Positions 6,743-28,624 are shown, numbered from the stretch's first letter. The stretch: 64,000 nt of DNA from Bacilli bacterium (GCA_022791775.1 JAAVZT010000033.1:8356-72355); one strand, 5' to 3'. A program made the numbers and translations. Notes: generated by a model not told the origin, from the letters alone.

Positions 6743-6744
6743 AA

Positions 6745-8967: not shown

Positions 8968-9070
8968 AAAAATTCCTCCATAATCTTGTTTTATTATACT
9001 ACATCATGTTAGAAAAAAGAATACCCAATTATTAGATATTCTTACTGAAATAGAAAAGAAGAAAAGGATA

Positions 9071-9778: not shown

Positions 9779-9790
9779 AAAAGTCCCTTT

Positions 9791-12244
9791 CTAATTTAAA
9801 AGACCACTTTGAAATTTAGAAACAAAGTCAGGAGTTTGATGTGTCTCATAATAACCATTCATTCGAATAATCGTATAATTGTAACTCGAAGAAGACACTT
9901 TTGAACGATTACTAATTCGTAAACCACCATTTTTTCCAGATGCTTCTGCTGTTTTTAACATATTAGAAGCTGGATCCACACTGATAATTAACTCGATATG
10001 ACCAGGATGATGTAATAAATCACCTGGTTTTATCTCTGCAAAATCAGCCTGTAACAAGGAAACATTTTGAACTCCAGCAAGATTTAAAAACGAAGAAGAA
10101 GTAGAAACAGAAGAAATCGATATTCCAGCATTTTTCATAGCCCATGCCACAAATGCAGAACAATCTGGACCATAAGCTGGATACATTCCGTATTTTGCAT
10201 AATAAAATGGTCCTTTGGTTCCCCAATCGGGATCTACGCCATAAAATGACCAAACAGAACGTCCAACACCATTTATTGCACTATGACCTCCACTATAATA
10301 ATAAGGCAAGCGAATTTGATATTGTGTCGCTAACGTATCCACAAGTCCAAGCGCCGCTCCTACAACTCCATTCGCCGTTCCCACACCAGATTGTAATACG
10401 CGATCCAAAATAATTTGATTTAAATCGGCGACACTAGAACCATGTGCTAATAAAAATTTCGATAACGGTTCATGAAGTTCTGTTGTACCTTGTGTAGAAG
10501 AAGTTGATCCATCCGTATTAGCAGAACTGTAATAAATAGATTTCAAAACAATATCATTGCCATAATAATAGTTTAATATGTTTTGATAAGAAAAACCTTC
10601 TACACTAGCCAAATATAACATTCCATATTGGCTCATTCCCCGACCATGACCCCCATCACGATACTTTCCATTCGCATAACAAGAACTAGGTGCACCAGCA
10701 GAGTTATTACAAGGACAATTTTTATAAGTTGAACTATGAATATTAGCTTCTACCCAAGAAGTAGGAATTTGCTGACCACCATTTCCATATTCTCCCTGTA
10801 ACATAGTATAATAATTACTGTCCTTACTGGCAAAACAAAATGCATCATATTCTGTTCGTTTTATCGTACTTCCATTCGTAACAACAATTCCTTTTGTTTG
10901 CATAACAGCATCCGCAATTAAGGCATCTGCATTTCGATCACTTCGATCTTCTTCAGCCGTAAAAGTTTGGGTTGCAGTACTATTATTAATAGTACAATTA
11001 TTTCCTATATTAGCCAATACATAACTACGCGCTGCGACCGCCATTGCTTTATATGCTTCTAAATTATTCGCTCCACGAAATTCATGATAGACAACTCCCT
11101 TAACATAATCTTCGATACTTAAAGTAACGGCACTTCCACTTCCCTGTCCGCCTGATTCACTTGTCTTTGTCGTAGTCGTAATTTCCGTACATTTGGGAGC
11201 AATATACCCATATCCCCCCAAGCCAACATAATCAGAATGATTCTTCCCTTTTAACGATTCATCGGTACTCATTAAAACCCAATCTTGATCAGGATAAAAT
11301 AAACGAAAAATGGCATCATAACTTCTATTTTCAACAGTAGTTAAATAATAAGCCCCATAAATACTGATTCCGGTTCCACTTCCGCCATCAACATAAATAA
11401 GCTCTGGATTTTCTGATTCCGAATAATGCCAAGATGATTCATAACAGACATTTTCCTTTTTCGGAATGCTAGGATCTGGATTATTACATGCACAATTAGT
11501 AAAATAAAAGGATTTTACATGCTCTTGAACCCAAGAAGTAGGAAAAGCATAATCTAATTGAGCTAATGTATAATAACTATCTAGTTCATTTTGCTCATCC
11601 TCCACAACCTGATTATAACAAAAGCCATCTAAAGAAGTTTGATAATATTGCTTCGTATTTTTATCTACCATCACCAAATCTTTTACATTTTGAATAGCTT
11701 GTTCTATTTCTAAATATTTTTCATGATCCATCGCCAAGATTTCAAACTCATAAATATCATCTACCTCAGGATCATATCGTTTACTACAAACACCAGTTAA
11801 TTGAACTTCTGTATTAACCACAATCGCTAAAGTCTGATATAATTTTGCATTAGCTTCTTCCATCTCTTTCGTAGCAGAATATATATGACTAATGATATAT
11901 TGTTCTAAACTAAGACTTTCTGGACCTTCTTCATCATCTAAAGTTACCATCATCGTTTTACATCTAGGAGCAATGTATTCAAATTGATTACTTACCCCAC
12001 CATAAAACAAAATCAAAACAATAATGAAAAAAAGAAAGAACCCAACAAGCATTAAAATAATAGGAAAAGCAACGGGATTTTTTACTATCACATTTGGGAG
12101 AAGTACCCATTTTCGAGAAGAGGAAACTTCATTAGAATGTGTTTCATGAGTAGAATCAAAATCATTTGTATCCGATTCATCTCTACTTTCTTGGGATTCT
12201 TTATCTAATTTAAAATCTTCTTCTTTTGTAGATTCATATTCCAT
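9791..12244 (-). CDS. bifunctional cell-wall hydrolase (SpoIID/LytB-like lytic domain plus C-terminal NlpC/P60 peptidase), VirB1/CwlT-like
   Basis: Acidic cytoplasmic N-terminus and one TM. SpoIID/LytB-like motifs (YHEFRGANNLEAYKAMAVAARSYVL; GGHGRGMSQYGMLYLA), with a partially duplicated upstream copy (NCACNN vs NCPCNN; DGGSGTG vs DGGHGRG). C-terminal NlpC/P60 Cys-His (DCSAFVAWAMKNAGI ... HHPGHIELII). Confidence 0.8.
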   Translation of the reverse strand: MEYESTKEEDFKLDKESQESRDESDTNDFDSTHETHSNEVSSSRKWVLLPNVIVKNPVAFPIILMLVGFFLFFIIVLILFYGGVSNQFEYIAPRCKTMMVTLDDEEGPESLSLEQYIISHIYSATKEMEEANAKLYQTLAIVVNTEVQLTGVCSKRYDPEVDDIYEFEILAMDHEKYLEIEQAIQNVKDLVMVDKNTKQYYQTSLDGFCYNQVVEDEQNELDSYYTLAQLDYAFPTSWVQEHVKSFYFTNCACNNPDPSIPKKENVCYESSWHYSESENPELIYVDGGSGTGISIYGAYYLTTVENRSYDAIFRLFYPDQDWVLMSTDESLKGKNHSDYVGLGGYGYIAPKCTEITTTTKTSESGGQGSGSAVTLSIEDYVKGVVYHEFRGANNLEAYKAMAVAARSYVLANIGNNCTINNSTATQTFTAEEDRSDRNADALIADAVMQTKGIVVTNGSTIKRTEYDAFCFASKDSNYYTMLQGEYGNGGQQIPTSWVEANIHSSTYKNCPCNNSAGAPSSCYANGKYRDGGHGRGMSQYGMLYLASVEGFSYQNILNYYYGNDIVLKSIYYSSANTDGSTSSTQGTTELHEPLSKFLLAHGSSVADLNQIILDRVLQSGVGTANGVVGAALGLVDTLATQYQIRLPYYYSGGHSAINGVGRSVWSFYGVDPDWGTKGPFYYAKYGMYPAYGPDCSAFVAWAMKNAGISISSVSTSSSFLNLAGVQNVSLLQADFAEIKPGDLLHHPGHIELIISVDPASNMLKTAEASGKNGGLRISNRSKVSSSSYNYTIIRMNGYYETHQTPDFVSKFQSGLLN

Positions 12245-12311: not shown

Positions 12312-14096
12312 TTATAAACCTCCTCCAGAACCGAAGGAATCTAATTCTTCTTGTGTAACAATAATACGAATTCGCATCCGTCGATTTCCACAAACAAATA
12401 AAGCATCTCCCTGATTGTAATATTTAATACTATCTTTCTCACTATCATTCAAATCTATTAAACGAGATAAATCTTCAATTGCTTGTTTCTTTAAATTCAT
12501 AATCAAATAATAAGCTGCATTATCAAAAATAGCCTTTCCATGCGTAATTACATTAGGTGCAGCAAAATCAGTAGGTTGCTGTGTAATAATAATTGTTCCC
12601 GTATTGTATTTTCGACTTCGTCTTTGAATATTTGCCAAAAACTCTGCTCCAAGTTCATTTCTAGTAGACAATAATACATGAGCTTCATCTACACATAACA
12701 CAGTATTAATACTCGGATCCAAACAGAGACCCCAAGCATATTTTAAAATATTGAAAAAGAGAGCATTTTTAATATTTTCATCCGAATTCATAAGTTCTCG
12801 AATATTAAAGACTATAAAATCACTATCAATCTGTAAAGTCGTATGTCCAGTAAAATAATACCGTAATTCTTTTACAAGTGGACGAATCTTTAGTTCCAAA
12901 CGTTCCATTACATCACGTTCATGAGTTTTTTCCGTCATCGAAAGAAGTCGTCCTTTAATCGTTGCATAAACATCATCAAAAGTCGGATAATCAGCAGATG
13001 TAAATTGTGTGTAATCTGTATCAAAATCAATGCGATAACGTTTGTAAGTATCTTGTACAACTTCTGTAAACATCGTCAAAACATCTTCATCTATACTTGG
13101 AGAATAATACTTCATGAAAGCTTTTAATTGCTGTAAAGTACGTGTTAATACGGTATAGCCAAGCCCCTGACTAATTTCACCTTCATCTGCGTCAATAATA
13201 ATTTCTAAAGGGTTGATCATTCCAAACTCTCCACCCTTACCAAGATCTAAGAAATCTCCACCCATCATTCGGGTCATATCTTCTAGTTCTCCCTCAGGAT
13301 CAATACAGACGATTTTATACTCATTTCGAATATGAGTTCGTAACAATAATTTAGCTGTTGTTGATTTTCCACTACCACTTGTTCCAAGTAAAATAATATT
13401 GGCATTATTTCGGTTGCTTTCTTTTTTTATTTGATATAAAAACTGATTAAATAAAATAACGCCTCCCGAAAAATCCACTCCAAACAAAGCACTATTTCCA
13501 GGATCCTTAATACTATCAAAAATAAAAGGATACATAGCCGAAATAGTCACGCTTGGAATTGGTGTTCCCACTCGTTCTTCAATATCTTGTTTCGGAAAAA
13601 TTGGAATCATAGATTTTAACACTTTTTCCTGTTCAAACATCAAAGATACTCCGCGCATTCCAAGCGCATCTAAATAATTTCGCACTTGCATTTTACGCAA
13701 TTCTAATTCATCTTTCGTATCTGCTGAAATCATAATATGCAATTGAAAGTCAAAGATCTTAGCTTGCGTTGCAACTAACATGGAAATAAATTGATCTAAA
13801 GATTCATAATCCTGCCGGATTCGTTCTTGAATTGTTTTATCATGTTCCGTTTGATATCGAGTTTTTAAATCAGCTATTTCTTTATTAATCATTCGTTGCA
13901 AAGTTGATAATTCAATCGGGATATGTTTTGCAACAACTTTAACCCCAGAAATATTAGTTAAATTAGCTAAATAACCTGGTTGAATAAATTTGGGATAACT
14001 AACTATTGAAAAAATGGTACAATATTTTCCACTAATCATAAAATCCATAGGTTTAAATTCGATTCCCTTTGGAGCTAATTGACTTTTAATATTCAT
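12312..14096 (-). CDS. virB4: VirB4-family type IV secretion ATPase, C-terminal ATPase part
   Basis: Walker A LGTSGSGKSTTAK, Walker B VLCVDEAHVLL, and a CagE/TrbE/VirB4-like arrangement. At 594 aa it is shorter than a full VirB4; the upstream ORF supplies the N-terminal domain. Confidence 0.85.
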   Translation of the reverse strand: MNIKSQLAPKGIEFKPMDFMISGKYCTIFSIVSYPKFIQPGYLANLTNISGVKVVAKHIPIELSTLQRMINKEIADLKTRYQTEHDKTIQERIRQDYESLDQFISMLVATQAKIFDFQLHIMISADTKDELELRKMQVRNYLDALGMRGVSLMFEQEKVLKSMIPIFPKQDIEERVGTPIPSVTISAMYPFIFDSIKDPGNSALFGVDFSGGVILFNQFLYQIKKESNRNNANIILLGTSGSGKSTTAKLLLRTHIRNEYKIVCIDPEGELEDMTRMMGGDFLDLGKGGEFGMINPLEIIIDADEGEISQGLGYTVLTRTLQQLKAFMKYYSPSIDEDVLTMFTEVVQDTYKRYRIDFDTDYTQFTSADYPTFDDVYATIKGRLLSMTEKTHERDVMERLELKIRPLVKELRYYFTGHTTLQIDSDFIVFNIRELMNSDENIKNALFFNILKYAWGLCLDPSINTVLCVDEAHVLLSTRNELGAEFLANIQRRSRKYNTGTIIITQQPTDFAAPNVITHGKAIFDNAAYYLIMNLKKQAIEDLSRLIDLNDSEKDSIKYYNQGDALFVCGNRRMRIRIIVTQEELDSFGSGGGL

Positions 14097-14662
14097 TCTG
14101 GACTCACCATCCCACTAAATGTTGTTGCAACTCCCCCATTAAAGAAATTATCAATAATAATTCGTAAATCACTATTTGAAGTTTGTGTTGAATTTAATCC
14201 ACAATTAGCTAAATTACTAATCAAACTGTGAATTCGCTTCTGAACCACTTCCATTTTCTTTTCTTTAAATAAAATATAGTATTCTGTATCTACTACATTA
14301 TATTGAGCACTCATAAACATATTGGCTTTATTAATATCTTCTTGAATTAATTTTCTAGAAACATTCGTCTGTGCATTATTATATAAAATTTGAAGCTGTG
14401 AAAGATATACATTAATATCAACTGGTCGATCTGCAACAACTAACCAAAATTCATAATCGATAGAATTATAAAAATTTCGCAAATTATAAATCACATTATC
14501 TCGTGAACCCTGATCCATAATAAATATATTGCGTGGTTGAATCTTAATTCCAGTTACATACTCTTTATTATCGAGCTCAATCATACCATTCATAATTTGT
14601 TTGATCGGAATCCAATCTTCTGTCCATTTTGAAGCAAGTTCTTCTTTTTTATTTTTCGCCAT
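14093..14662 (-). CDS. VirB4 N-terminal domain encoded as a separate ORF (split virB4)
   Basis: 189-aa ORF whose TGA stop overlaps the ATG of the ATPase ORF (ATGA overlap). Together with that ORF it totals about 783 aa, typical for Gram-positive VirB4 (ConE/Orf16/TcpF-like). Confidence 0.55.
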   Translation of the reverse strand: MAKNKKEELASKWTEDWIPIKQIMNGMIELDNKEYVTGIKIQPRNIFIMDQGSRDNVIYNLRNFYNSIDYEFWLVVADRPVDINVYLSQLQILYNNAQTNVSRKLIQEDINKANMFMSAQYNVVDTEYYILFKEKKMEVVQKRIHSLISNLANCGLNSTQTSNSDLRIIIDNFFNGGVATTFSGMVSPE

Positions 14663-14960
14663 CTTTCATACACCAGCCTTTCCAATAATACCGTTTCCGA
14701 TTCATATAAAAGAGAAATATATTAGTCAAGAGTTGCATTACATTATGATAATTCGGAACGGGAACAACCAAAAAACCTGAAATAATAGCTGGAAGTAATA
14801 CTAAAAGTGCTGTTTGAAAATTCATCGATTGAAATATAAAAAGCAATATTAGCGTAACACTACATCCTACTCCAAATATGATTAAATCCAAATAGGTAAA
14901 GAAACCAAAAATAAGCTTTGATTTCTTTGTATTTGCTGGTATTAAATAATTCGTATTCAT
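14649..14960 (-). CDS. small two-TM membrane protein, VirB3-like position
   Basis: 103 aa with two hydrophobic helices, immediately upstream of virB4 as for VirB3/ConD/Orf17-type proteins. Confidence 0.4.
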   Translation of the reverse strand: MNTNYLIPANTKKSKLIFGFFTYLDLIIFGVGCSVTLILLFIFQSMNFQTALLVLLPAIISGFLVVPVPNYHNVMQLLTNIFLFYMNRKRYYWKGWCMKDGEK

Positions 14961-14978: not shown

Positions 14979-17435
14979 CTATTTTTTTCCACTATTTCCT
15001 TGATTACTCTGTCGCGCAGCTCGCGCTTCTTTTTTCCGTTCTACATCAGCAGCCAAACGATCGCGACTGGCTTTTAAATCTTTCATCGTATCATCTAATT
15101 GTTTTCCCGCGTCAGAAGAAAAATTAATTTTATTTTCACCAAATGATTCCATTTTATTATTAATTTTATCCATATTCGAACGAATAGTTAATAATTTACT
15201 ATCATCCGCAACAACATTTCCATTCGCATCTTTTTTGGTAAATCCAAGTTGAATTTGTAAGTCAGAATCATAAGCAGCAGATTGTAATTGCATCCAAGAA
15301 CTTTTTTCTATTTGAGCAATTGCACTTTGTAAATCGGCTACATCTTGGCTTCGCTTTAATACTGCTTTATCATACGCTTCTTGATTAAAATTACCAGCTG
15401 TATCTTTATAATCGTCCCGATTTAATGGTTGCTTTTGCATGGTTTCCATATAATTTCGCATCGAAGCAATACTATGAACTCGTAAATTCCCTTGTTCGTC
15501 TCTATATTGAAATTTTTCTTCAAACAAACGCTGATAAGTATTTACTTGTTCCGCACTGCCCTTCCATAACGATTTCATTTTATCGGGGGTGATCACTACT
15601 TGATCGTTATTGACATTACGTTCCAACAACTTCTTTGCTTCTTCATCAGCTGTATTTTGTAAAGTCAAGGTATCATTATAGAATTTTAATTTATTTTCCT
15701 CAGCTTCAAAGCCACCGCCAGCCCATTCTTTAACATTATCAAACATATCAATAATTTGCTGTCGTCCAACATTTCCAGGATGAGCAACCCGATAAGCCTC
15801 TCTTCGAGCTCTCGCTGATACAGTATCACTTGCAGCAGTTCGAGCTGACGAACGAACATCTGCTATATTTTTCGCACCTCGAGCTCGATATCCTCCTCGT
15901 ACAGCTCCTGAAAGCCCTCCAGCTCCAGTAGAAAGAATTCCTCGCCCAGTCTCTCTAGCAGCAGAGAAAATTCGTGAAGTAACAGATTCATCTGGTCTAT
16001 TCCACGCTGCGGCCACATTTTGAAATGCATTTGTTCCATTTCGAACTGCAGCAGTAACGCCTCCACCTATTAAAGCGGCAGCAGATAAAGCTCCACCAGC
16101 TGCTAATTTTGGCATAATTCCTAATTTCATATTACCAGAATCAATTCCTGTAATATCTGCAATTAATTTTGGAGCTTCTTTCACAAAGGCAATAACTCCC
16201 ATAATTAACACAACATTAACCCATAAACCTTGCCAAGTATTTAAATTCACATGAATATTGCTTAAAAAATAAACAGCCATATACATCAAGAAAACACGAA
16301 TAAATACTTCCATATAAGTAGCCAAAGTTTTCTTAAGCCATTTATCAAATTGCGCCCCTTTTCCAGGCATCGCTCTCATGAATATTGGAACGGGAGCAAT
16401 TAATTGTAAAAAAGCTAAACGTACTGAACGGATTCCTAAATCAATACAAAAAGAAGTTAACAAATAAATCATAACTAGGGCACATAATGAAGAAATAAGT
16501 GGCGTATAGGAAATTTCCACTGTTCCAGATCCATCTACACTTTTAGCACCTTCTTGTAAAACCTTAGCAAGAGAAATAATTTGGGTAAAATCTCCCGTAT
16601 TCATAATCGAAAAGCGAATATCATTCCAGCTATAATGAGAATAATCCAAAGCATTCCCTAACGAGTTCACTGTCGCTCCAGATACTCCACAAGCTACTGC
16701 AGCAACACCAAGGCCAGCACCAACTCCTGCTCCAAAGGTAAAAATCGTAATCCCTGCTCCAGCAGCACCTCCAGCAATACATCCAATCACAGAACCTACA
16801 TTAACATATCCATTCTTTGTGGTAAACTCACCTGCATCATATTGAAAATCTTGATTTTCTGGATTTAAAAAAGCATTTAATGAAGTAAGTGCCATCACAC
16901 GACCATATGAATTTACTTTTGATTCTGCTACTTCACTCGCCGTTAAAGTTTTCGTCGTTTCAGTATAATCTTTGCCATCTTCTGTATATTCTCGAACTGT
17001 AACATCCATCTCCTGAACTCCAAATAATAATGTACCAATTACATTATTATTTAGAATAAAATTTTGAAGTTTGCGAGAATAATCAAAAGCGGTTGGTAAC
17101 AGACCAATAATGACTAAAGAAACAACTAATTTAGAAGCTACTTTAGAAAAACTTTTATCTCCCTTTGTTAAATTATCAGGATTAATAATCACCTGCAACA
17201 ATTCATAAGCAAGGACAAAAAGCATGACAACTCCTAACACAACATAAACACGTTGCGCAAAATTATCATAAATTTCATTCGAAAAAATTTCTGTTTTTGC
17301 AACTGCCAAAAAAATCTCATAAAGCCAAGCAACGGCAGAATATAATGCTGAGTCAATCATTAAAAATAATTGTGACAATTTTTCGTCTAACCATAACCAA
17401 GAAATTAACATGCAACCACCCCTAACGTATTCCAC
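14979..17435 (-). CDS. VirB6-like polytopic membrane protein with long C-terminal coiled-coil extension (ConG/TcpH/Orf15-like)
   Basis: About 480 aa with at least 6 TM helices, then about 340 hydrophilic, charged, coiled-coil residues. Size and location fit Gram-positive VirB6 analogues. The true start may be the internal Met (MLISWLWL) at 17411. Confidence 0.6.
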   Translation of the reverse strand: MEYVRGGCMLISWLWLDEKLSQLFLMIDSALYSAVAWLYEIFLAVAKTEIFSNEIYDNFAQRVYVVLGVVMLFVLAYELLQVIINPDNLTKGDKSFSKVASKLVVSLVIIGLLPTAFDYSRKLQNFILNNNVIGTLLFGVQEMDVTVREYTEDGKDYTETTKTLTASEVAESKVNSYGRVMALTSLNAFLNPENQDFQYDAGEFTTKNGYVNVGSVIGCIAGGAAGAGITIFTFGAGVGAGLGVAAVACGVSGATVNSLGNALDYSHYSWNDIRFSIMNTGDFTQIISLAKVLQEGAKSVDGSGTVEISYTPLISSLCALVMIYLLTSFCIDLGIRSVRLAFLQLIAPVPIFMRAMPGKGAQFDKWLKKTLATYMEVFIRVFLMYMAVYFLSNIHVNLNTWQGLWVNVVLIMGVIAFVKEAPKLIADITGIDSGNMKLGIMPKLAAGGALSAAALIGGGVTAAVRNGTNAFQNVAAAWNRPDESVTSRIFSAARETGRGILSTGAGGLSGAVRGGYRARGAKNIADVRSSARTAASDTVSARARREAYRVAHPGNVGRQQIIDMFDNVKEWAGGGFEAEENKLKFYNDTLTLQNTADEEAKKLLERNVNNDQVVITPDKMKSLWKGSAEQVNTYQRLFEEKFQYRDEQGNLRVHSIASMRNYMETMQKQPLNRDDYKDTAGNFNQEAYDKAVLKRSQDVADLQSAIAQIEKSSWMQLQSAAYDSDLQIQLGFTKKDANGNVVADDSKLLTIRSNMDKINNKMESFGENKINFSSDAGKQLDDTMKDLKASRDRLAADVERKKEARAARQSNQGNSGKK

Positions 17436-17880
17436 AGGTATCTAAACCATAAAGCCCAAAAATTTCAAACAATAAATCCAAAATAAATGGTAATAAAAAG
17501 ACAACTATACCTGCTACTAAGCGTTTTACAAACCTTCCATTCGCTTTTTTAATTTCATCTGCATTTTGCGCCGAAATTGCCTTTACATAATCTATCGTAG
17601 ATAAAGCAAGAACTAAAGTAGGAGCCAAAAACTTAATGAGCGTAAAAATATCCTGTAAAAATTCTTGCATTTGTGCATCAAAAAGCGCTTCACAGCCTTC
17701 TGTTGGACCAGCAGGTACAATCGGATCCATATTTCCATATTCCAAATCAGAAGAACCAGTTATAGTTTCTGGTTCAAAATATTTTATCTCAAACCCATAA
17801 GAAAAACGCTCTTTCGCTTCTACACTTTGAAACAAAACAAACACACACAAAAGAAAAAATAAAATTTTAGAGTATTTCAT
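17422..17880 (-). CDS. pilin-like hairpin protein E (signal peptide, about 70-aa ectodomain, VirB2/TrbC-topology two-helix module)
   Basis: C-terminal module LAPTLVLALSTIDYVKAISAQNADEIKKANGRFVKRLVAGIVVFLLPFILDLLFEIF aligns with the four downstream paralogs. The tail ends in a Cys. Confidence 0.55.
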   Translation of the reverse strand: MKYSKILFFLLCVFVLFQSVEAKERFSYGFEIKYFEPETITGSSDLEYGNMDPIVPAGPTEGCEALFDAQMQEFLQDIFTLIKFLAPTLVLALSTIDYVKAISAQNADEIKKANGRFVKRLVAGIVVFLLPFILDLLFEIFGLYGLDTCGIR

Positions 17881-17981
17881 ATTGAACTCCCCTCTACGAC
17901 TGATTCGTAAGACAATTTTTCACACAATCATTATATCAACTTTCCATAAAAAAAACTAGCATTATTTAAATTTGCTAGTTT

Positions 17982-18440
17982 TTAACACTTATTAGGAGAA
18001 GTAATACATAAACTACACTTTTGATAATCAGATTCATATGGATTAAATCCATCTACTAATTGAAAAACCAAATGAATCAAAGTCGGTAAAAAGAAAATTA
18101 CAACTCCTGATATTGCTCGAAACATTAAAGTACGAATAGCTTTTTTCATTTCATCATCTTTAGAACCAATCACCGCTTTTGAAAAATCCCATACGCCAAA
18201 AACAATTAATAAAATAGGAACGACAATCTTAATAACCATAAAAATTCTTCCCAAAAACCGAAATGGCTTTAGAAAATGAGGATTCGAACAAGGCGAAGAA
18301 TAAATAGTATTATTTGATTCATCTCCCATTTCATCACCAAGTGCAATCATTTCATCTAAAGAATTAGACGTAGCATACACAGGCATAACCTCAATTCCTA
18401 ACAACACTAGTAAAACTAATAAAAATCGTATTTTTTTCAT
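17982..18440 (-). CDS. pilin-like hairpin protein D (about 150 aa)
   Basis: Signal peptide (MKKIRFLLVLLVLLG), short ectodomain, then VPILLIVFGVWDFSKAVIGSKDDEMKKAIRTLMFRAISGVVIFFLPTLIHLVFQLVDG...CSLCITSPNKC. Start trimmed to the signal-peptide Met. Confidence 0.6.
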   Translation of the reverse strand: MKKIRFLLVLLVLLGIEVMPVYATSNSLDEMIALGDEMGDESNNTIYSSPCSNPHFLKPFRFLGRIFMVIKIVVPILLIVFGVWDFSKAVIGSKDDEMKKAIRTLMFRAISGVVIFFLPTLIHLVFQLVDGFNPYESDYQKCSLCITSPNKC

Positions 18441-18444
18441 ATTA

Positions 18445-19548
18445 TCACTCACTTTTAATCGTACATTCATCTGGATCTAAAATACAGACCCTACAATTAT
18501 GATAACGCGCCATGGTTTCAGAATAACCGTCTAATACTCCAAACAAAAATTCAATCAACGACGGCATCATAAAAATTACTACACCTATCAAAAAACGTTT
18601 TACTAAAACCGATACTTGTTTTGGAACATCATCGCTTTTTCCACTTAACATAGCTTTTCCAAAATCAATACTTCCTAGAACAATGATAATGAAAGGTACA
18701 AAAACTTTAACAATAAAAAGTAAAATTCCTAAAAATTTTAACGTTCTTGCCACTCGTGGCTCATAACATAAACCAGCTAAATTAATATCTTCATTTCCTT
18801 TTGATTCATCATGAAAAGAAGTATTATGATTCGAAGAATTCGCGCGTTCCATTGTAAAATATACATCATTACCTACTTCTTTTACAAAAAGACTACTTTG
18901 TTCACAACTTTTCGCATCTCGATAAAAATTATTTCCAATATCTTCACTAAAATAGAATGAGCGACCAGAAAGCTCTACCGAATCTTCTAAAAAGCCTTCG
19001 GTCCGTTGTTCATCATATGTTAATTCAAATTTCTTGGCTCCATCAGCATCTAAAAAGAAACGAATTCGCGCATTTTTACCATGAACCATAATAGATCGAT
19101 TACAAAAACTTTCCGATTGAGTTTCATTCCGAACTAATTGTACCATTGGAGTAATCAAAATAGCCTCTTCTTGAGTCACTTGACAAATTTGTGAAGAAGT
19201 ATAAATATGATAAAAACGGCTTTTTGTATCACGACAATAATACAAATCAGGAGCCTGATTTAAATAACTACCATCTTTAAAACTAAATGCTAATACATCT
19301 TGATCAAACTGATCCATAGAATTACCCTTTCCATAATAATCAATTCGATTTACTCCTTCAAAAAGAGCCCCAGACTTATATTCTTTCACAATTGTTCCGT
19401 CACTATATAAATCTAACATAAAACTAAGATCCATTCCTTCTTCTTGAAAAGAATACTCAAATGTTGCTAACAAATCACTAGCATTTACAAAAGTAGGAAT
19501 GAAAAGGAAAAAAATAGACACAATGATTTGTAAAATCTTTAATTTCAT
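18445..19548 (-). CDS. pilin-like hairpin protein C with about 300-aa N-terminal ectodomain
   Basis: Signal peptide MKLKILQIIVSIFFLFIPTFVNA. C-terminus VPFIIIVLGSIDFGKAMLSGKSDDVPKQVSVLVKRFLIGVVIFMMPSLIEFLFGVLDG...CRVCILDPDEC. Confidence 0.6.
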   Translation of the reverse strand: MKLKILQIIVSIFFLFIPTFVNASDLLATFEYSFQEEGMDLSFMLDLYSDGTIVKEYKSGALFEGVNRIDYYGKGNSMDQFDQDVLAFSFKDGSYLNQAPDLYYCRDTKSRFYHIYTSSQICQVTQEEAILITPMVQLVRNETQSESFCNRSIMVHGKNARIRFFLDADGAKKFELTYDEQRTEGFLEDSVELSGRSFYFSEDIGNNFYRDAKSCEQSSLFVKEVGNDVYFTMERANSSNHNTSFHDESKGNEDINLAGLCYEPRVARTLKFLGILLFIVKVFVPFIIIVLGSIDFGKAMLSGKSDDVPKQVSVLVKRFLIGVVIFMMPSLIEFLFGVLDGYSETMARYHNCRVCILDPDECTIKSE

Positions 19549-19558
19549 AAGAATCACC

Positions 19559-20821
19559 TTAACATTTCTTTGGACTTGTAATACATTTCGTACAATCTGA
19601 ATATGCCGTTTTATAATCGGTCCAGTCATCTACTAGAGAAAATAATACATGAATAACAGTTGGAATAAAGAAAATAACAACTCCTGCAATAGCTCGTATA
19701 GCAATTGTTTTAATCGATTTGGATAACTCTTCTGGATTTTGACTCACTACAGCTTTCATAAAATCAATTATTCCAAGAGTAATAATAATAATTGGAATCA
19801 AAAGACGAACGATCATTAAAATCCAACCAACGTATCGCATAGGAACTTTAAAATTTTGAGACTTACAAATTTGGCCTAATGTGATATCCGTCATAGTATA
19901 ACCCAAATCTTCTACTTGAGACCATTTATCATCTTCATTTTGCCCATCATTTCCATCCGTCTTGGCATTTGCTTTATAATGAACCAAATCATTCATAGCA
20001 CCAGTAAACAAATTTTTTTGTACAGCACATACAATCGAACCAGCAGCTACTTCTCCTCCAAACATTTCCTTAGCCTGATTTCGAATACTAAGACTAACAG
20101 ACAACTTACCACAATAAATATCTGTTGGCCATGTTTTTTTCTCAACCACTGGCTTAATAATTTCATTTGTATAATTCTCTATTCCAGAATGAACAAAAAT
20201 GACATTTTGCGTTTGATGAAATAAAATCATTTTTGATGATAAAGAATACTGATTTTGAAAATCATATTTAAAATAAAAAGTTAAATTTCCAAATTGATGA
20301 TCTGATCCTTCAGCATAATAAGTTTTTTTATATTCCTTAACAGATGAAGAAATTTCCATCTCGCCATCTTCCTTTTGAATCAAATCATCTTCTAATGAAG
20401 TTTTATCACTTAATGCAGCCCAAGTAACTGAAGTCAAAACACCTTGATATTTTAAATAATTATCCCGATCGGAATCCCCATAGATTAAATAGTAACCAGC
20501 TACATTTAATTGAGTTGGATTAACGGTCGTAATATTCATGATGTAATCTGGACACCGTTTTAAACTTTGATAATTTGTTTGAACACTATCATCATTTTTA
20601 AAAGAAGAAATAGAACGAGCAGGATTAATTTGATGGCCATCATAATATTGCAATCCAGAAAAAGTTCCATCTTGATAAAAGGTCACATCAACACCTAAAT
20701 ATCCGCCTTCTTTCCCACTATAATATTTACAAACACGATCTATTTCCTTAGCTTGTCCCACAAAAAGAAAACCAAAACATATAACACTCGCAAAAACGAC
20801 TCTTTGAATTATTTTTTTCAT
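19559..20821 (-). CDS. pilin-like hairpin protein B with about 350-aa N-terminal ectodomain
   Basis: Signal peptide MKKIIQRVVFASVICFGFLFVGQA. C-terminus IPIIIITLGIIDFMKAVVSQNPEELSKSIKTIAIRAIAGVVIFFIPTVIHVLFSLVDD...CTKCITSPKKC. Confidence 0.6.
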   Translation of the reverse strand: MKKIIQRVVFASVICFGFLFVGQAKEIDRVCKYYSGKEGGYLGVDVTFYQDGTFSGLQYYDGHQINPARSISSFKNDDSVQTNYQSLKRCPDYIMNITTVNPTQLNVAGYYLIYGDSDRDNYLKYQGVLTSVTWAALSDKTSLEDDLIQKEDGEMEISSSVKEYKKTYYAEGSDHQFGNLTFYFKYDFQNQYSLSSKMILFHQTQNVIFVHSGIENYTNEIIKPVVEKKTWPTDIYCGKLSVSLSIRNQAKEMFGGEVAAGSIVCAVQKNLFTGAMNDLVHYKANAKTDGNDGQNEDDKWSQVEDLGYTMTDITLGQICKSQNFKVPMRYVGWILMIVRLLIPIIIITLGIIDFMKAVVSQNPEELSKSIKTIAIRAIAGVVIFFIPTVIHVLFSLVDDWTDYKTAYSDCTKCITSPKKC

Positions 20822-20910
20822 AAGTATCTCCACTTCTTTTAAAGCTAAATTTATTATAACAAAAATACACACAAGAAACTAGAGAAAAAGAAAAAACAGT
20901 TTTCACTGTT

Positions 20911-21294
20911 TTATTCTCCATCTTCCTCTACGCTACAAAGAGAAGAATTCGGATTGGAAATACATGCCTTACATATATCAAAGTCATCTTTTACTTGTGC
21001 AAAGTTTCCAACAATTCCCATTAATACTCCAACAATAGTTGGAATAAAGAAAATGACAACGGCTGCAATCGCTCTTTTTAACAAAGCATTTGTTGCTTTT
21101 TTAATTTCATCATCTTTAGAAGCAATAACTGCTTTTCCCAAATCGATCATTCCAAAAACAATTAACAAAATAGGAATAACAATTTTAAATACCATTAAAA
21201 CATAACCTAATGTTTGCCAAATACTTGCAGAGGCAGAACAAAAACCTGCTTCAGTTCCTACATCATATCCCAAAAATATTAACTTACTTAACAT
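20911..21294 (-). CDS. minimal VirB2/TrbC-like pilin candidate A (127 aa)
   Basis: Long signal-like N-terminus, then a helix-charged loop-helix hairpin (VIPILLIVFGMIDLGKAVIASKDDEIKKATNALLKRAIAAVVIFFIPTIVGVLMGIV) and a CKACISNPNSSLC tail. Size and topology match VirB2/TrbC pilins. Confidence 0.55.
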   Translation of the reverse strand: MLSKLIFLGYDVGTEAGFCSASASIWQTLGYVLMVFKIVIPILLIVFGMIDLGKAVIASKDDEIKKATNALLKRAIAAVVIFFIPTIVGVLMGIVGNFAQVKDDFDICKACISNPNSSLCSVEEDGE

Positions 21295-21359
21295 ATAATA
21301 TCTCCTTTTTTCTACTTATATCCATATTGTAAAGTCTTGACGTCGTGAAGTCAAGTAAA

Positions 21360-22379
21360 TTATTTAAAAATGTTAAATAATTTACTACCTTTCTCCTGTT
21401 TTTCATCTTCAATTCGCATAAAACCCATTTTTATTAAAAATTCATCTAAAATTTTATGGTGATCCAACTTATCATCTAAATAAGGTAAATTAAAATAAAC
21501 TTTACTTTTCGATTCATATTCAAAATCCTTAATATCTGCTTCATTTAAAACACTACGATTTAAAACAATTTTTTTATCGCGCAATTTTTCAAAAGCACGT
21601 CTATCTTTTCGAATTAATTTATTTAACTTAATCAACCCAGGTTCAATTAAATAAATTACTTCATTACAATGACTAACTGGACCTTTATCATTTAAATCAA
21701 CTAAAATGACTTCATGATTTGCATGTTTAACAATAAATTGAGGTAAATCTGGAGTCGTTGTATGATATAAGGTTTTATCATTAAAATACATAAAATCATT
21801 CTGATCTACTTCCACTGCAATCACATCATACTTAGAAGATAATTGTTTCTTTAATAAATAAGTAAGTGTTGTACTGCCAGCATGATCTGTAATATTTTTA
21901 ATTCCAATTACACGCATAGGTACATTACTAGAAGTATGAGTACTATCTGTATTAGTGACAGGTGGTACCACAGAAACTGGTTCATAGTTACCAACATCAT
22001 TAAGTTGATGGTATTGTGCTACATCCTTATAAGTATTTGGATTATCGATCAAAAACCTTACTGCATCAATATTTCGTGTAAAATTATAAATCCCCATGGA
22101 AACCAATTGAGATAAATAACGCGGACTATTTACAACTTCCGAATCATCTAGTAACAAAATAACTTTACTCATATCCATATTCACAGATAATTCTTGTATC
22201 ATAGAAATATTTTGATAATCCTTAATTGCAGTAATATCTAAAATCATTTTATTAAAATAAAAATTACTAAATGTCGTCACTAGTTCATCCGCTGAAAATA
22301 CACCATTTAAACTTTTAATAATATCAATATCTAATGTAGAAATTAAAGATTGATATTTATTTGATACAATTACATTCAT
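21360..22379 (-). CDS. TadZ/CpaE-like pilus-assembly protein candidate (N-terminal receiver-like domain plus degenerate ParA/MinD fold)
   Basis: IGIKNITDHAGSTTLTYLL lies at the position of a deviant Walker A but lacks the lysines. HEVILVDLND is a Walker B-like hydrophobic strand. Location next to the pilin and platform genes also fits. Confidence 0.35.
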   Translation of the reverse strand: MNVIVSNKYQSLISTLDIDIIKSLNGVFSADELVTTFSNFYFNKMILDITAIKDYQNISMIQELSVNMDMSKVILLLDDSEVVNSPRYLSQLVSMGIYNFTRNIDAVRFLIDNPNTYKDVAQYHQLNDVGNYEPVSVVPPVTNTDSTHTSSNVPMRVIGIKNITDHAGSTTLTYLLKKQLSSKYDVIAVEVDQNDFMYFNDKTLYHTTTPDLPQFIVKHANHEVILVDLNDKGPVSHCNEVIYLIEPGLIKLNKLIRKDRRAFEKLRDKKIVLNRSVLNEADIKDFEYESKSKVYFNLPYLDDKLDHHKILDEFLIKMGFMRIEDEKQEKGSKLFNIFK

Positions 22380-22401
22380 AATACAACTCCCTTTCTAAAA
22401 A

Positions 22402-22887
22402 TTAATTTAAAATAACTGGTACATCATCTTTTGGAAAATTAATGTCAATAGTTGAGCCAGATACATGAAATGTAAATAAATCCCCAATAATTGGCAAATT
22501 AAATTGAAAAAATGTATCGATTTCATATCTTGCTCTATTTCGAAAAGAACTATCGCTTGTATTAATCTTTTTGACGCAATAATAATATTTTACTCCACTA
22601 CTTGCTCGCACCAAAGAAGCATCATCTAAAGATACAGCTCCATAAGTATCCGTCGGACAATTTCCTTTCGCTTGATAATGATAATACCGTAAATAGTTAT
22701 TAATAAGTGAAACGCTCTTATTTTCTCCTGACATAACTCCTTCGTACTTCTCAATAATAGAAAGCATCTCATTTTTAATTTTAAAAGCCTTGGTATAATT
22801 AATTGACAAAGCTAAAAAACCAACAAAAATCAACATAAATAGGATAACTAATTGCAAAATCCATGTAGAACCGATTGCTTGTCTCAT
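22402..22887 (-). CDS. TadE/pseudopilin-like protein 1
   Basis: N-terminus MRQAIGSTWILQLVILFMLIFVGFLALSIN (short polar leader, Gly, hydrophobic helix), then a roughly 120-aa globular domain. Paralog of the next gene. Confidence 0.4.
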   Translation of the reverse strand: MRQAIGSTWILQLVILFMLIFVGFLALSINYTKAFKIKNEMLSIIEKYEGVMSGENKSVSLINNYLRYYHYQAKGNCPTDTYGAVSLDDASLVRASSGVKYYYCVKKINTSDSSFRNRARYEIDTFFQFNLPIIGDLFTFHVSGSTIDINFPKDDVPVILN

Positions 22888-22891
22888 TTTC

Positions 22892-23410
22892 TCACCTACT
22901 TACACTCATAACTTTGGTATCACCTGTTAAAGAAAACATAAATAATTCATTAAAAACAGGTAAATCTAGCTGATAAAATACAACAACTCGATAATAACGC
23001 ATATTTGGTAATTCTTGAACCTGTTGCGGAATATCAGAACCATTTTTATCTCCCATTTTAACCTCTGCCAAACAAAAAGCTGGATTCGTCTTATCTTTCT
23101 TTCCTTCTCGATTATATCCTTGATAAACAATTTCTAATTTATTTTTAGAACTAGTTACATCTGCTGGACACTTACCCGTCGTTCGATAAGAAGAATGTTT
23201 TAAAATATTAGCAATTTCTTCTAATACAACACTTCCACTACTATCCGTACTAAGATCCACTCCATTATAACGTTCAATTACTTCTAGAATTTCACTTTTA
23301 ACACCATATGCTTTGGAATGGTTAATAGTTAAACACATAAATCCCGTAAAAAGCAAAATGAAAAAAATGACAATTTGAAATAACCAAGTTCCACCTATTG
23401 CTTCTCTCAA
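22892..23410 (-). CDS. TadE/pseudopilin-like protein 2
   Basis: N-terminus MREAIGGTWLFQIVIFFILLFTGFMCLTIN. Same architecture as the previous gene. Confidence 0.4.
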   Translation of the reverse strand: MREAIGGTWLFQIVIFFILLFTGFMCLTINHSKAYGVKSEILEVIERYNGVDLSTDSSGSVVLEEIANILKHSSYRTTGKCPADVTSSKNKLEIVYQGYNREGKKDKTNPAFCLAEVKMGDKNGSDIPQQVQELPNMRYYRVVVFYQLDLPVFNELFMFSLTGDTKVMSVSR

Positions 23411-23429
23411 AAATCATCACCCATTTCTA

Positions 23430-23660
23430 TTAACCTTTCCAAACGCATGTGAATTTCTCAGATCTTCGTCCTTTATAATAACAGTCCACAGTTCCATCTG
23501 CATTTGGTTTTTTTTCACATATAGCATCACTGCATTTGGTTGTTCTCGCCATATTATTCCGAATCATTGGCCAGATAATCGTAAAGAAAAAAGCTGCTAG
23601 AATAGCGACCACTATTATTACAAAAACAGTCATATTAAGTTCTCCAGTAGCTTCTTTCAT
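23430..23660 (-). CDS. Flp-size pilin-like protein 1 (76 aa) with Cys-rich C-terminus
   Basis: MKEATGELNMTV leader, then a hydrophobic helix (FVIIVVAILAAFFFTIIWPMI), then a tail with 5 Cys. Confidence 0.4.
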   Translation of the reverse strand: MKEATGELNMTVFVIIVVAILAAFFFTIIWPMIRNNMARTTKCSDAICEKKPNADGTVDCYYKGRRSEKFTCVWKG

Positions 23661-23688
23661 ATATTATCTTTCACCTACGATTTCCTTA

Positions 23689-23928
23689 TTATTTATTATT
23701 GTTATTTGGACAAGTAACTTTTTCACTTACACCTTTTTCATTCAAATATTGACAAGTACAAGTATTTCCTTTACTACAATCACAATTTGTAACATTTGCA
23801 CATTTAGTACTATTTAAAATATTAGTCTTAATACTTGGCCATATAAATGCATAAAAGAATGCGGCTACAGCAGCAATTGCCACAACAGTAACAACTGTCA
23901 TATTTAATTCTCCGGTTGCTTCTTTCAC
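23689..23928 (-). CDS. Flp-size pilin-like protein 2 (79 aa) with Cys-rich C-terminus
   Basis: GTG start. KEATGELNMTV is identical to its paralog although the DNA differs at synonymous sites. Hydrophobic helix, then a tail with 7 Cys. Confidence 0.4.
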   Translation of the reverse strand: MKEATGELNMTVVTVVAIAAVAAFFYAFIWPSIKTNILNSTKCANVTNCDCSKGNTCTCQYLNEKGVSEKVTCPNNNNK

Positions 23929-23989
23929 GAATAGACCCTCCTTTACTATATTTTTATTATAACTGGTTCTTCTAAAAATATCAATTCAT

Positions 23990-24778
23990 TTACATATTCA
24001 TTAACATAAGTACAGCTAAAATCAATAAAACCATTACACCCAAACCAGTCGCAATTAACATATGCATGGTTTTTCCTTCCATTTTCTCCAAACGTTCTTT
24101 ATATTTAATCTCTCTCGCCTTTTGTTGCAAATTAGAAATCGTCTTCGAAAATGCTAATAATTGTTCTTGTTTATGTTCTTGTCTTCCAAGACTCAAACGA
24201 TATAACAAACGCATCATTCGCATAGAATCACGCACAGGATACGTTTTAGCAAAATTCATGTATGGATCAATTCGGTCATTTCCCGCATTAATCTCATTAA
24301 TCATTTCCTGAAGTCCCTCTTTAAAAATAGATGGTGCATCTTCAATAGATTTACCAAGAGCCACAGGAACAGTATAATGTTGAATTAAAATTTCTAAACT
24401 TTTTAAATAATGCGGTAACATCGAATCAATTTCATGTAAATGAGCTTTATAATATTTCTTTAAATTGGAATAATCCATTTTAAAAACTAAATATCCTCCA
24501 ATTAAAGAAAAAATTATTGTAATATAACTAATTTTACTAAGAAAGAAAAATACTAAAACTAAAATTGTCAATAACCCATTTTGAATTCGTTTATTAAAAA
24601 GGAAATCAGGATTTACTCCATCGCCATATTTTGCTTTAACATAAAAGTCCCAATCTGACTCTTTTAATTTTCGAAAATAAACTTCATTATCCGCTACAAA
24701 ACGATTTGCACTAATTCGTCCTGTATAATTTAAAAGAAATAAAATAATCGCTCCCAAAATAAATATTTCAAAATACAT
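23990..24778 (-). CDS. TadC-like pilus platform membrane protein (single T2SS-F-type domain)
   Basis: N-terminal TM, a paired TM, a roughly 130-aa cytoplasmic domain and a C-terminal TM. Adjacent to a second similar protein and the secretion ATPase. Confidence 0.45.
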   Translation of the reverse strand: MYFEIFILGAIILFLLNYTGRISANRFVADNEVYFRKLKESDWDFYVKAKYGDGVNPDFLFNKRIQNGLLTILVLVFFFLSKISYITIIFSLIGGYLVFKMDYSNLKKYYKAHLHEIDSMLPHYLKSLEILIQHYTVPVALGKSIEDAPSIFKEGLQEMINEINAGNDRIDPYMNFAKTYPVRDSMRMMRLLYRLSLGRQEHKQEQLLAFSKTISNLQQKAREIKYKERLEKMEGKTMHMLIATGLGVMVLLILAVLMLMNM

Positions 24779-24780
24779 AA

Positions 24781-25674
24781 TTATTCAACCCCCACATCTT
24801 CATAATAGAATTTCTCTCCCGTTATCAAAAAATAACAATTCACTACAATAATAATGTGAAGAATTAATTGTACATACCACATATCAAGCATCTCAATATA
24901 ACTATCGGTCCCCAGTAAAAATTGCATTGCCATAACGAGTAAAAATAATGCCAAACCAAAAGTAACAAATCGCTTGTGAAAATCAGCACGATCAATTTGA
25001 TCTCGGTATACACCTTCAACCAAAGCATCGATATCCATCGACATATTTTCCAAAGCTTCTCCTGAATCCTTGGCCCCTTCTTTAGTAATTTGTAAAAATA
25101 ATTGATTCATATTCTTAACCATATAATACGGATATTTTTCATTAAAATAAACGACTGACTCATCTATCGTTCCGTTTTGATATGACATATCGATCATAGT
25201 TTTAACATCTGATAAAACGGGATCTTCTAAAATACCTGAATCCCGAACGCCTTCCAGCGATTTTACAAAACTTTGCGTTGTATTAAATTCCATAATTACA
25301 TTCGTTGTATAAATTTGAATCTGTTCAAAAATAAATTCACTGTATACTTTTTGACATCTTAAATAAGCCAAATAAGGAATAAATGCTACTGCAATTGCAC
25401 CATACATTATTGCAATTAAAATATTATAAAAATACAAATAAGAAATTCCTCCAGCTACTCCAGCAAAAATGATAACTTGCGTTGCATATTGCTTTGGTGT
25501 GTACTCCTGGCCTAATTCTTTTGTTTTTGCTCGTACTTCTTTAAAACTATAGGGCGCATATTTATTATAAGCATTAGAAACCTGGGTAATAAAGAAACGA
25601 TATACATTCTCCCCATTATTTCTTCGATAAGAAATAACAAAAATGGCTATAATAATCAGAATGATTAGTTCCAT
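24781..25674 (-). CDS. TadB-like pilus platform membrane protein (single T2SS-F-type domain)
   Basis: Same topology class as the previous gene. The pair of about 260- and 300-aa single-domain platform proteins matches the TadB/TadC pattern rather than ComGB/PilC. Confidence 0.45.
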   Translation of the reverse strand: MELIILIIIAIFVISYRRNNGENVYRFFITQVSNAYNKYAPYSFKEVRAKTKELGQEYTPKQYATQVIIFAGVAGGISYLYFYNILIAIMYGAIAVAFIPYLAYLRCQKVYSEFIFEQIQIYTTNVIMEFNTTQSFVKSLEGVRDSGILEDPVLSDVKTMIDMSYQNGTIDESVVYFNEKYPYYMVKNMNQLFLQITKEGAKDSGEALENMSMDIDALVEGVYRDQIDRADFHKRFVTFGLALFLLVMAMQFLLGTDSYIEMLDMWYVQLILHIIIVVNCYFLITGEKFYYEDVGVE

Positions 25675-25688
25675 AACTAAACCTCTTT

Positions 25689-26798: not shown

Positions 26799-26812
26799 AT
26801 GCTCATCCCCTT

Positions 26813-27667: not shown

Positions 27668-27724
27668 TTTTTATTCTTCCTTCCTATGCTCTATGTTTTT
27701 CATTTATTTTATCGATTACGAATT

Positions 27725-28612: not shown

Positions 28613-28624
28613 CTAACTCCCCTC

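Follow-up and report, generated by a model that had tools for sequence, protein, structure and literature searches.

How the type IV secretion systems (T4SSs) of Gram-positive bacteria, which lack a pilus, make contact with a target cell and breach it is an open question. In a review of December 2025, VirB2 and VirB5 were stated to be absent from Gram-positive T4SSs, with the Patescibacteria as the sole exception (PMC12857230). The question is raised anew by a stretch of 64,000 nucleotides from a Bacilli bacterium (GCA_022791775.1 JAAVZT010000033.1:8356-72355), which is called the window below and in which positions are counted from the first letter. Here, an array of five consecutive genes on the minus strand (17422-21294) codes for paralogous proteins that end in the same two-helix hairpin and lie next to the genes of a T4SS. 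The reading put forward in this paper is that these proteins are a family of pilin-like subunits of a Gram-positive T4SS, with a short core protein (Type A), four accessory proteins (Types B to E) and disulfide-stapled ends; a probability of about 0.5 is assigned to it.

Five Paralogs with a Common C-Terminal Module

The array was found where a preliminary description of this DNA had located it, and the neighbouring genes confirmed the placement between the T4SS core and a Tad-like module. Six paralogs had been claimed, but only five are present, as revealed by a hidden Markov model (HMM) of the five modules searched against the six-frame translation of the window. A sixth copy was not found in this search, the next match having E = 0.12. 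Six-gene arrays are present in close relatives, for example, in locus L001. The gene starts were corrected from the database proteins P0121 (99% identical) and P0155 (identical).

All five proteins share a C-terminal module of about 100 residues, consisting of a Cys, a first transmembrane helix (TM1), a loop rich in Lys and Arg, a second transmembrane helix (TM2), and a Cys-containing tail. The loop carries 4-6 Lys or Arg residues, and TM2 holds an invariant Pro. Invariant across the five modules are the Cys before TM1, two Pro, Asp/Lys/Arg positions in the loop, and a tail Cys. The paralogs share 30-48% identity with Type A, and BLASTP between them gave E-values from 6e-14 for A and E, the most divergent pair, to 1e-21 for A and C. 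Judged from these alignments, the common module is not due to chance; the repeated unit described earlier for all C-termini was borne out. The same is true for the tail motif CxxC..P..C of Types A to D and for the single tail Cys of Type E. The invariant Cys upstream of TM1 had been overlooked in the earlier work.

On the basis of hydropathy, Types B to E start with signal-peptide-like segments, and Type A is devoid of a signal peptide. Past the predicted signal peptide, the ectodomains comprise about 295 (B), 237 (C), 26 (D), and 40 (E) residues. For two copies, the ectodomain size had been overstated in the preliminary description, and only those of B and C are large.

Type A (20911-21294, minus strand; 127 residues) is the short, pilin-like hairpin of the family. 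About 18 residues precede its conserved Cys, and they do not form a signal-peptide-like segment. Its cysteines are Cys19 and C108, C111, and C120. In the AlphaFold2 model (mean predicted local distance difference test score, pLDDT, of 77.7), two helices of 36 residues (23-58 and 61-96) are followed by a short helix (102-113). More than 1400 homologs with 55-99% identity were identified. Upstream of the gene, a sigma-70-like promoter, TTGACT-17-TACAAT, is predicted at 21326-21354 on the minus strand (10 of 12 consensus positions matched), and behind it a strong ribosome binding site, AAAGGAGA, is present. Just past the stop codon, a hairpin with a T-run (20884-20912, minus strand) might be a partial terminator; its predicted RNA fold has -11.9 kcal/mol (z = -2.0 versus shuffled sequences), with a weak, AT-rich stem. 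This terminator-like hairpin would possibly make Type A its own transcription unit, and the three sites would suit a core subunit which is expressed separately and at a high level.

Type B (19559-20821, minus strand; 420 residues; module HMM 1e-46) contains a signal peptide, an ectodomain of about 295 residues with four Cys, and the hairpin module with C319, C410, C413, and C420. Its start was set by P0121, which also has 420 residues. Type C (18445-19548, minus strand; 367 residues) is 100% identical to P0155 from a 'Bacilli bacterium' metagenome-assembled genome. It consists of a signal peptide, a beta-rich ectodomain of about 237 residues with four Cys, a disordered linker, and the module with C261, C352, C355, and C362. 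Its AlphaFold2 model (pLDDT 71.8) shows strands within residues 26-232, low confidence at 238-257, and helices at 264-301 and 308-339. In Type D (17982-18440, minus strand; 152 residues; module HMM 1e-49), for which the open reading frame is readable from 18470, a signal peptide and about 26 residues are followed by a module with the C-terminal sequence CSLCITSPNKC. Type E (17422-17880, minus strand; 152 residues) has a signal peptide, about 40 residues, and a module ending in DTCGIR with its one tail Cys, and adjoins the gene for the VirB6-like protein.

Matches to the Pfam Family T4SS_pilin

Type A passes the Pfam family PF18895 (T4SS_pilin) with 31.8 bits, compared to a gathering threshold of 26.6, and covers profile positions 2-71 of 71. 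Type D (25.5 bits, E = 1.4e-5) and Type E (21.1 bits) are just under the cut-off. For B and C no direct match to PF18895 was obtained; they are homologous to Type A by BLASTP (1e-21) and by the module HMM (1e-46). Among long representatives of the family, PF18895 was matched by 16 of 85, and a precomputed match is present on many Type A orthologs. A second link to conjugation is NF045849, the 'pilin-like conjugal transfer protein' of Mycoplasma integrative and conjugative elements (ICEs). It was matched weakly by 8 of 17 members, with a best E-value of 6.3e-5, all of these matches being below the 40-bit NCBIfam cut-off. Profile matches in the PDB to TM5-TM6 of G protein-coupled receptors were rejected as spurious.

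For Type A, the VirB2-like size that had been proposed was supported, and an N-out/C-out topology like that of VirB2 is predicted. The signs of this predicted topology are the signal peptides on B to E, the loops with 4-6 Lys or Arg, the acidic or neutral tails, and the hairpin in the AlphaFold2 model.

Distribution and Gene Order in Relatives

An exhaustive HMM search retrieved 10,139 cluster representatives (clusters at 50% identity), of which 5,421 had E-values of 1e-10 or lower. The module is nearly always C-terminal, and among the best 150 representatives it is preceded by at least 30 residues in 106. Fusion to an N-terminal ectodomain, as described earlier for this array, is therefore the norm for the family. 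In a scan of species-representative genomes, relatives of Type A were identified in at least 345 species, and the hairpin is 55-75% identical across hundreds of species.

For the comparison of gene order, 80 related loci were kept from the genome scan, 46 of which had enough flanking sequence to be informative. Apart from five with the label Muribaculaceae, the 80 loci come from gut metagenome-assembled genomes that are labelled as uncultured Bacilli, 'Tenericutes', or Erysipelotrichaceae. Their arrays consist of one to eight genes, and Type A is the first gene in all 80. Full arrays end with Type E beside VirB6, and common orders are ACE, ABCDDE, ADE, and ACDDDE. In the related loci, the order array, VirB6, VirB3, VirB4 N-domain, and VirB4 is kept, with VirB6 following the array in 52. 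In 47 loci, T4SS genes were found downstream of the array; 36 of these belong to the 46 informative loci. Both Tad and T4SS genes are present in 23 of the informative loci, T4SS genes only in 13, Tad genes only in nine, and neither in one. The Tad-only loci hold just Type A, followed by AddAB, UvrA, or NifS-like genes. The fused Types B to E were never found without downstream T4SS genes where the contig allowed this check. Based on this gene order and the family matches, the hairpin family probably belongs to the T4SS apparatus.

Two arrangements deserve mention. In Ca. Ventrenecus, pyruvate kinase on one side and DnaB/DnaI-like genes on the other enclose the array together with a minimal T4SS. 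At locus L078 (9983-20355) the array is in two parts: Type A stands at the Tad-like operon, with a thioredoxin gene, a gene for a polytopic membrane protein, and TyrRS behind it, and the other three hairpin genes are located about 5 kb further on, beside VirB6. Across species, the median identity is 85% for VirB4 (range 66-94%), 81% for the Tad ATPase, and 38% for VirB6. On these comparisons, the system looks vertically inherited and chromosomal, as in Patescibacteria, rather than like an ICE.

Ectodomains and Enzyme Fusions

The hairpins of the B and C proteins are 50-70% identical to many others. For the Type B ectodomain, no relative was found among 5.8 billion proteins except the 99% identical copy P0121, and six other matches covered the hairpin only. 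The Type C ectodomain has three relatives besides its own copy in the protein database search; neither its model nor its ectodomain gave a fold match in the PDB with Foldseek (best E = 0.18). Past the signal peptides, no similarity between the B and C ectodomains was detected (E = 0.16). By sequence comparison, the hairpins are conserved and the ectodomains hypervariable.

In the family, signal-peptide-led ectodomains reach about 500 residues. Among 120 long relatives from the loci, Amidase_3 was found in 10, Peptidase_C39_2 in six, NlpC/P60 in three, Peptidase_M15_4 in two, a VgrG3-like lysozyme domain in two, and a GDSL lipase in one, the remainder being without a Pfam domain. Thus, about one fifth of the long relatives carry peptidoglycan or lipid hydrolases. 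In a separate jackhmmer search, eight amidase-type ectodomains were all present on Type E hairpins. In a few representatives the enzyme follows the hairpin rather than preceding it, and this occurrence of enzymes at either the N- or the C-terminal end fits a location of both termini outside the cell. Individual variants include P0157, a tandem double hairpin, P0178, in which the hairpin is followed by an esterase-like domain, and P0182, in which it is followed by a C39-like peptidase.

Cysteines and a Putative Disulfide Staple

The mature proteins contain four (A), eight (B), eight (C), four (D), and two (E) cysteines. An even number was also found in 133 of 175 signal-peptide-bearing relatives (p = 3e-12), and relatives of Type E, with their single tail Cys, mostly have an odd number in the ectodomain. 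Since the mature proteins hold even numbers of cysteines, disulfides are likelier than links to a lipid or a cofactor. The cysteines are thus more likely to be engaged in disulfides, including one which would tie the segment before TM1 to the tail behind TM2. The attachment of a lipid or cofactor, one of the possibilities raised in the preliminary description, is hereby disfavoured. A reading of the conserved G-F-C as a lipobox was ruled out, Phe being unsuited at position -1.

A candidate for the formation of such bonds is encoded at 33524-33964 on the plus strand. The product is a membrane-anchored thioredoxin-fold protein with a CHFC site and matches to Thioredoxin_2 and TraF, and its gene adjoins the island and is divergently transcribed. 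At L078, a thioredoxin homolog (10425-10853; 36% identity, CSHC) directly follows the Type A gene. The CHFC protein is possibly an extracytoplasmic disulfide oxidoreductase for the Cys-rich exported subunits.

A Model for the Array Proteins and its Alternatives

In the proposed model, each hairpin would be inserted with both ends outside and the Lys/Arg-rich loop in the cytoplasm, like VirB2. Outside, disulfides between the Cys before TM1 and the tail Cys would staple both ends together and thereby functionally replace the head-to-tail cyclisation known from VirB2/TrbC. Type A would be the core and candidate major subunit, which lines or extends the channel on a platform of VirB6, VirB3, and VirB4, and which might form a short stalk or a true pilus. 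Types B to E would be incorporated there by means of the hairpin common to all five and would expose adhesin-like or wall-cutting domains at the surface or the tip, taking roles held elsewhere by VirB5, VirB1, and surface adhesins. That a real extracellular filament is formed is a tentative part of the model, put at somewhat less than an even chance.

Several observations weigh against a pilin-like role. The profile comparison with VirB2/TrbC, by which the proposed kinship could be checked, did not support it: with profiles of the family built from 17 and 58 sequences, hhalign gave a probability of 0.2% for the comparison to five annotated VirB2/TrbC proteins, and none of the array proteins matched PF04956. 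Sequence profile searches of the PDB with two family profiles (E up to 10) returned no conjugative pilin, and fold searches gave only generic helical hairpins, which do not demonstrate a pilin fold. Established families of conjugative pilins are highly divergent in their own right, and for this reason the negative profile comparison is weak evidence. The module is thus VirB2-like by its size, predicted topology, position, and Pfam label, and not by demonstrable homology. The pilin label rests on the name of the Pfam family, and to our knowledge members of PF18895 have never been shown to polymerise, nor do we know of a pilus observed on any T4SS of the Bacillota. Ectodomains of 240-300 residues, if present on every subunit, would be hard to accommodate in a helical filament of the VirB2 type, so that B to E could not be more than minor or terminal subunits. 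For Type A, promoter and terminator were called from consensus matches only, and the disulfides are a prediction for a strict gut anaerobe. The preliminary description had named homologs without any T4SS genes as a refutation of its reading, and this applies in part: in 10 of the 46 informative loci (the nine Tad-only loci and the one with neither), about 10 kb around Type A are free of T4SS genes. No such case was seen for the fused Types B to E where the contig allowed this check.

Some of these findings would be explained by a docking anchor without any filament, in which the two-helix hairpin recruits wall hydrolases and adhesins to the T4SS channel, with Type A as a small subunit of the channel or of its assembly. 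Peptidoglycan hydrolase fusions on Type E, beside VirB6, are what such an anchor would look like, and VirB1-like hydrolases of Gram-positive bacteria are usually membrane-anchored subunits of the T4SS (PMC12857230). The generic hairpin in the fold searches, the lack of homology to polymerising pilins, and the poor suitability of large ectodomains for a filament point the same way. However, one transmembrane helix would suffice for anchoring, and a conserved hairpin of 100 residues with an invariant Cys staple and 55-75% identity would not be needed. Type A, moreover, has no ectodomain to dock, yet is the most conserved member and apparently separately transcribed, and both the PF18895 match and the precedent of the patescibacterial pilin arrays speak for more than an anchor. 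The docking anchor is possible but considered rather unlikely. The loci in which Type A stands apart from the T4SS bear on a different proposal, namely that Type A is a part of the Tad-like machine, for example, a platform or coupling subunit, and that only B to E were recruited to the T4SS. Wherever the Tad-like operon is present, Type A is the last gene after it; nine loci have no T4SS nearby, at L078 Type A stays with the Tad block about 5 kb away from the other paralogs and VirB6, and the best match of the operon's secretion ATPase is to VirB11. This is countered by the 13 loci, among them that of Ca. Ventrenecus, in which Type A heads the array beside VirB6/VirB4 with no Tad genes near. 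In addition, four prepilin-like genes are already part of the operon, and Type A is the very member which passes PF18895. We know of no Tad component with the architecture of Type A, and this assignment is regarded as improbable.

The gene order speaks against an unrelated family of small membrane proteins, such as holins, bacteriocin-immunity proteins, or toxin-export hairpins, which would be present at this site by chance. Hairpins of two transmembrane helices with a charged loop are common in holins and immunity proteins, the spurious matches to G protein-coupled receptors show how generic the pattern is, and a CAAX/CPBP protease gene is located near. Yet the order with VirB6, VirB3, and VirB4 is kept across dozens of species, genes for an endolysin, a bacteriocin, or an ABC exporter are absent from the array, ectodomains that follow a signal peptide and reach about 500 residues are unlike holins, and the matches to PF18895 and the Mycoplasma ICE family indicate conjugation. 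Such a chance neighbour is very improbable.

If, in contrast, the pilin-like reading is taken to its full extent, a wall-bearing Gram-positive bacterium would possess a VirB2-type filament with a disulfide-joined core and with minor pilins fused to hypervariable adhesins and to wall- or lipid-cutting enzymes. This self-drilling and target-recognising filament would form, together with the adjacent type IV pilus, a vertically inherited, chromosomal apparatus for contact between cells. This far-reaching version is unlikely. If true, the apparatus would be a functional counterpart of the T4SS and type IV pilus that are essential in epibiotic Patescibacteria. It would then be a hint that these uncultured gut Bacilli draw DNA or nutrients out of bacteria around them, or attack them.

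Comparison to Known Systems

Arrays of this kind are known from Patescibacteria, in which 2-11 divergent VirB2-like genes (PF18895) are located in tandem by virB4 (PMC12102498). In Southlakia epibionticum, a VirB2-like array of six genes was shown to be essential (PMC12102498; PMC12857230). The array described here resembles them in the Pfam family of Type A and in the tandem, divergent paralogs by virB4, virB3, and virB6 of a monoderm (MPF_FATA-related) T4SS. Both are chromosomal, have no relaxase seen nearby, and co-occur with a type IV pilus system. They differ in the host, which here belongs to the uncultured gut Bacilli (Bacillota) and is not a patescibacterium. Here, also, the paralogs are ortholog types in a fixed order, most of them bear signal-peptide-led ectodomains, some of which are enzymes, and in all of them a putative Cys staple and a CxxC..P..C tail are present outside the Pfam domain. 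Neither ectodomain fusions nor a Cys staple or tail are mentioned for the patescibacterial pilins in PMC12102498 and PMC12857230. No account of such arrays in the Bacillota or in RF39-type gut lineages was found in full-text literature searches. What is new at this locus is the host among the Bacillota, the conserved ortholog types, the ectodomain and enzyme fusions, and the putative cysteine staple.

For the Mycoplasma ICEs, only VirB3-like small proteins have been listed, and CDS13 and CDS15 were called VirB3-like (PMC12857230). CDS15/Mbov_0395 (NF045849) is a small membrane protein encoded upstream of a VirB6-like gene (CDS16) and of an Mbov_0397-type VirB4 (CDS17). The array described here takes the same position, directly upstream of its VirB6-like gene, and its VirB4 is of this type (5e-103). 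The Mycoplasma gene is single and codes for about 80 residues without an ectodomain fusion. In contrast to the Mycoplasma ICE, VirB4 is here encoded by three genes, and the host is walled.

The similarity to VirB2/TrbC (PF04956), F TraA, and archaeal CedA1/Ted lies in the small size, the two-helix hairpin, the predicted N-out/C-out topology, the basic loop, and the virB3/virB4 neighbour. The ends would be joined in both cases, by cyclisation in VirB2/TrbC and by the putative disulfide staple here. Unlike with these proteins, no sequence or profile similarity was detectable, and Type A has no long cleavable leader. The helices of about 36 residues, the Cys-rich tail, and the ectodomain fusions also set the array proteins apart from canonical pilins. 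Minor pilins of type IV pili and of type II secretion (GspK, PilY1-associated) likewise combine a conserved insertion module, shared with the major subunit, with bulky, variable domains, which come to lie at the tip or base as adhesins or initiators. The comparison is no more than an analogy. Both fold and machinery are unrelated, since the minor pilins have one helix at the N-terminus and are served by a prepilin peptidase and a PilB-type ATPase.

The family is large, comprising about 10,000 clusters formed at 50% identity and occurring in no fewer than 345 species. It would place pilin-like subunits in T4SSs of the Bacillota, where such a subunit would serve as a chassis on which variable surface domains and wall hydrolases are mounted. 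If the proteins assemble, they would offer the first route to a conjugative-type pilus in Gram-positive bacteria and a natural case of pilin display. They would also provide concrete proteins for disulfide stapling as an alternative to the cyclisation of pilins, and would tie a widespread uncultured gut lineage to the combination of T4SS and type IV pilus which is essential for the epibiotic life of Patescibacteria.

The T4SS Genes Downstream of the Array

The genes downstream of the array are all located on the minus strand. Type E is followed by an extended VirB6/TrbL-like polytopic membrane protein of 818 residues (14979-17435; TrbL_4). Its NCBIfam matches are pLS20_p028, MMCAP2_0566, and Mbov_0396 at about 1e-6 (NF045889/NF045848 at about 2e-6). 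The Mbov_0396 matches raised the idea that VirB6 starts with the same hairpin. This was rejected, since hhalign of the family against the N-terminal 150 residues of the VirB6-like protein was not significant (probability 0.8%).

VirB4 (12312-14960) is of the Mycoplasma ICE type, with matches to NF045975, PrgI, and the TraG P-loop, and is split into three genes. NF045975 is the model for the Mycoplasma ICE VirB4 and has 894 positions. The VirB3/PrgI-like protein of 103 residues (14649-14960) matches its positions 2-96 (E = 9.5e-4), the VirB4 N-domain of 189 residues (14093-14662) positions 93-276 (E = 3e-16), and the VirB4 ATPase of 594 residues (12312-14096) positions 294-891 (E = 5e-103). The split into three genes is kept in all related loci. 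By these family matches, the system is a Mycoplasma ICE-type T4SS with a split VirB4.

The rest of the T4SS block extends over 4669-12244 and was assigned with Pfam. It codes for a wall hydrolase with SpoIID and NlpC/P60 domains (9791-12244), a lipoprotein-like protein of 235 residues (9071-9778), and a VirD4-type coupling protein (6745-8967; CD1115-family VirD4 in NCBIfam, 1.6e-88). The last gene (4669-6630) codes, by its translation, for a secreted protein of 653 residues with an N-terminal anchor. An assignment of this protein as the relaxase was ruled out; it is secreted and anchored at its N-terminus, and no family matches were obtained in Pfam or NCBIfam.

The Tad-Like Operon and the Chromosomal Setting

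Upstream of the array, a Tad-like (type IV filament) operon is located at 21360-33408 on the minus strand (T2SSE 5e-25, RcpC, DUF5411). It codes for a secretion ATPase, a CpaB-like protein, a DUF5411 protein, two polytopic proteins, four prepilin-like proteins, and a protein of 1338 residues. For the secretion ATPase (25689-26798, minus strand; T2SSE 5e-25), the best NCBIfam match is VirB11 (TIGR02788, 112 bits, below the cut-off), followed by the TadA family and TrbB. This enzyme might serve the T4SS as a VirB11-type partner instead of being a pure Tad ATPase.

The four prepilin-like genes (22402-23928, minus strand) code for proteins with the N-terminus M-[KR]-[EQ]-A-[TI]-G and a hydrophobic helix. 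Two of the proteins are small (76 and 79 residues) and carry five to six Cys towards the C-terminus; the larger two have 161 and 172 residues. No prepilin peptidase was identified. The five array proteins are without an N-terminal class III signal of Flp/Tad or type IV prepilins, in which one hydrophobic helix comes after a Gly cleavage site, and have the C-terminal two-helix hairpin instead. Near the start of the operon, the protein of 1338 residues (28625-32641, minus strand) has no match in Pfam or NCBIfam. It is 23-44% identical between species and is a second candidate for a hypervariable surface protein.

The T4SS, the array, and the Tad-like operon form a block of about 29 kb between housekeeping genes. 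One flank holds RmuC, BacA, and a D-Ala-D-Ala carboxypeptidase, and the opposite flank TyrRS, LeuRS, enolase, and sigma factors. Neither a relaxase nor an integrase was noticed in the window. A known plasmid was ruled out, since megablast of 12 kb against PLSDB gave no match and the flanks are housekeeping genes. At 35638-36144 and 36886-39017, matches to a CotZ-like spore coat protein, SpoVE/FtsW, and a SleB-type cell-wall hydrolase were obtained. These matches suggest as the host a Firmicute that has a cell wall and possibly forms spores, although many relatives are labelled 'Tenericutes' in the databases. The housekeeping genes of the window are of the Firmicutes type as well.

Next to the thioredoxin gene, a gene for a CAAX/Rce1-like (CPBP) intramembrane protease is located on the plus strand (33977-34690). 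The C-terminus of Type E, C-G-I-R/S, loosely resembles a CAAX box, yet this tail is predicted to be extracellular.

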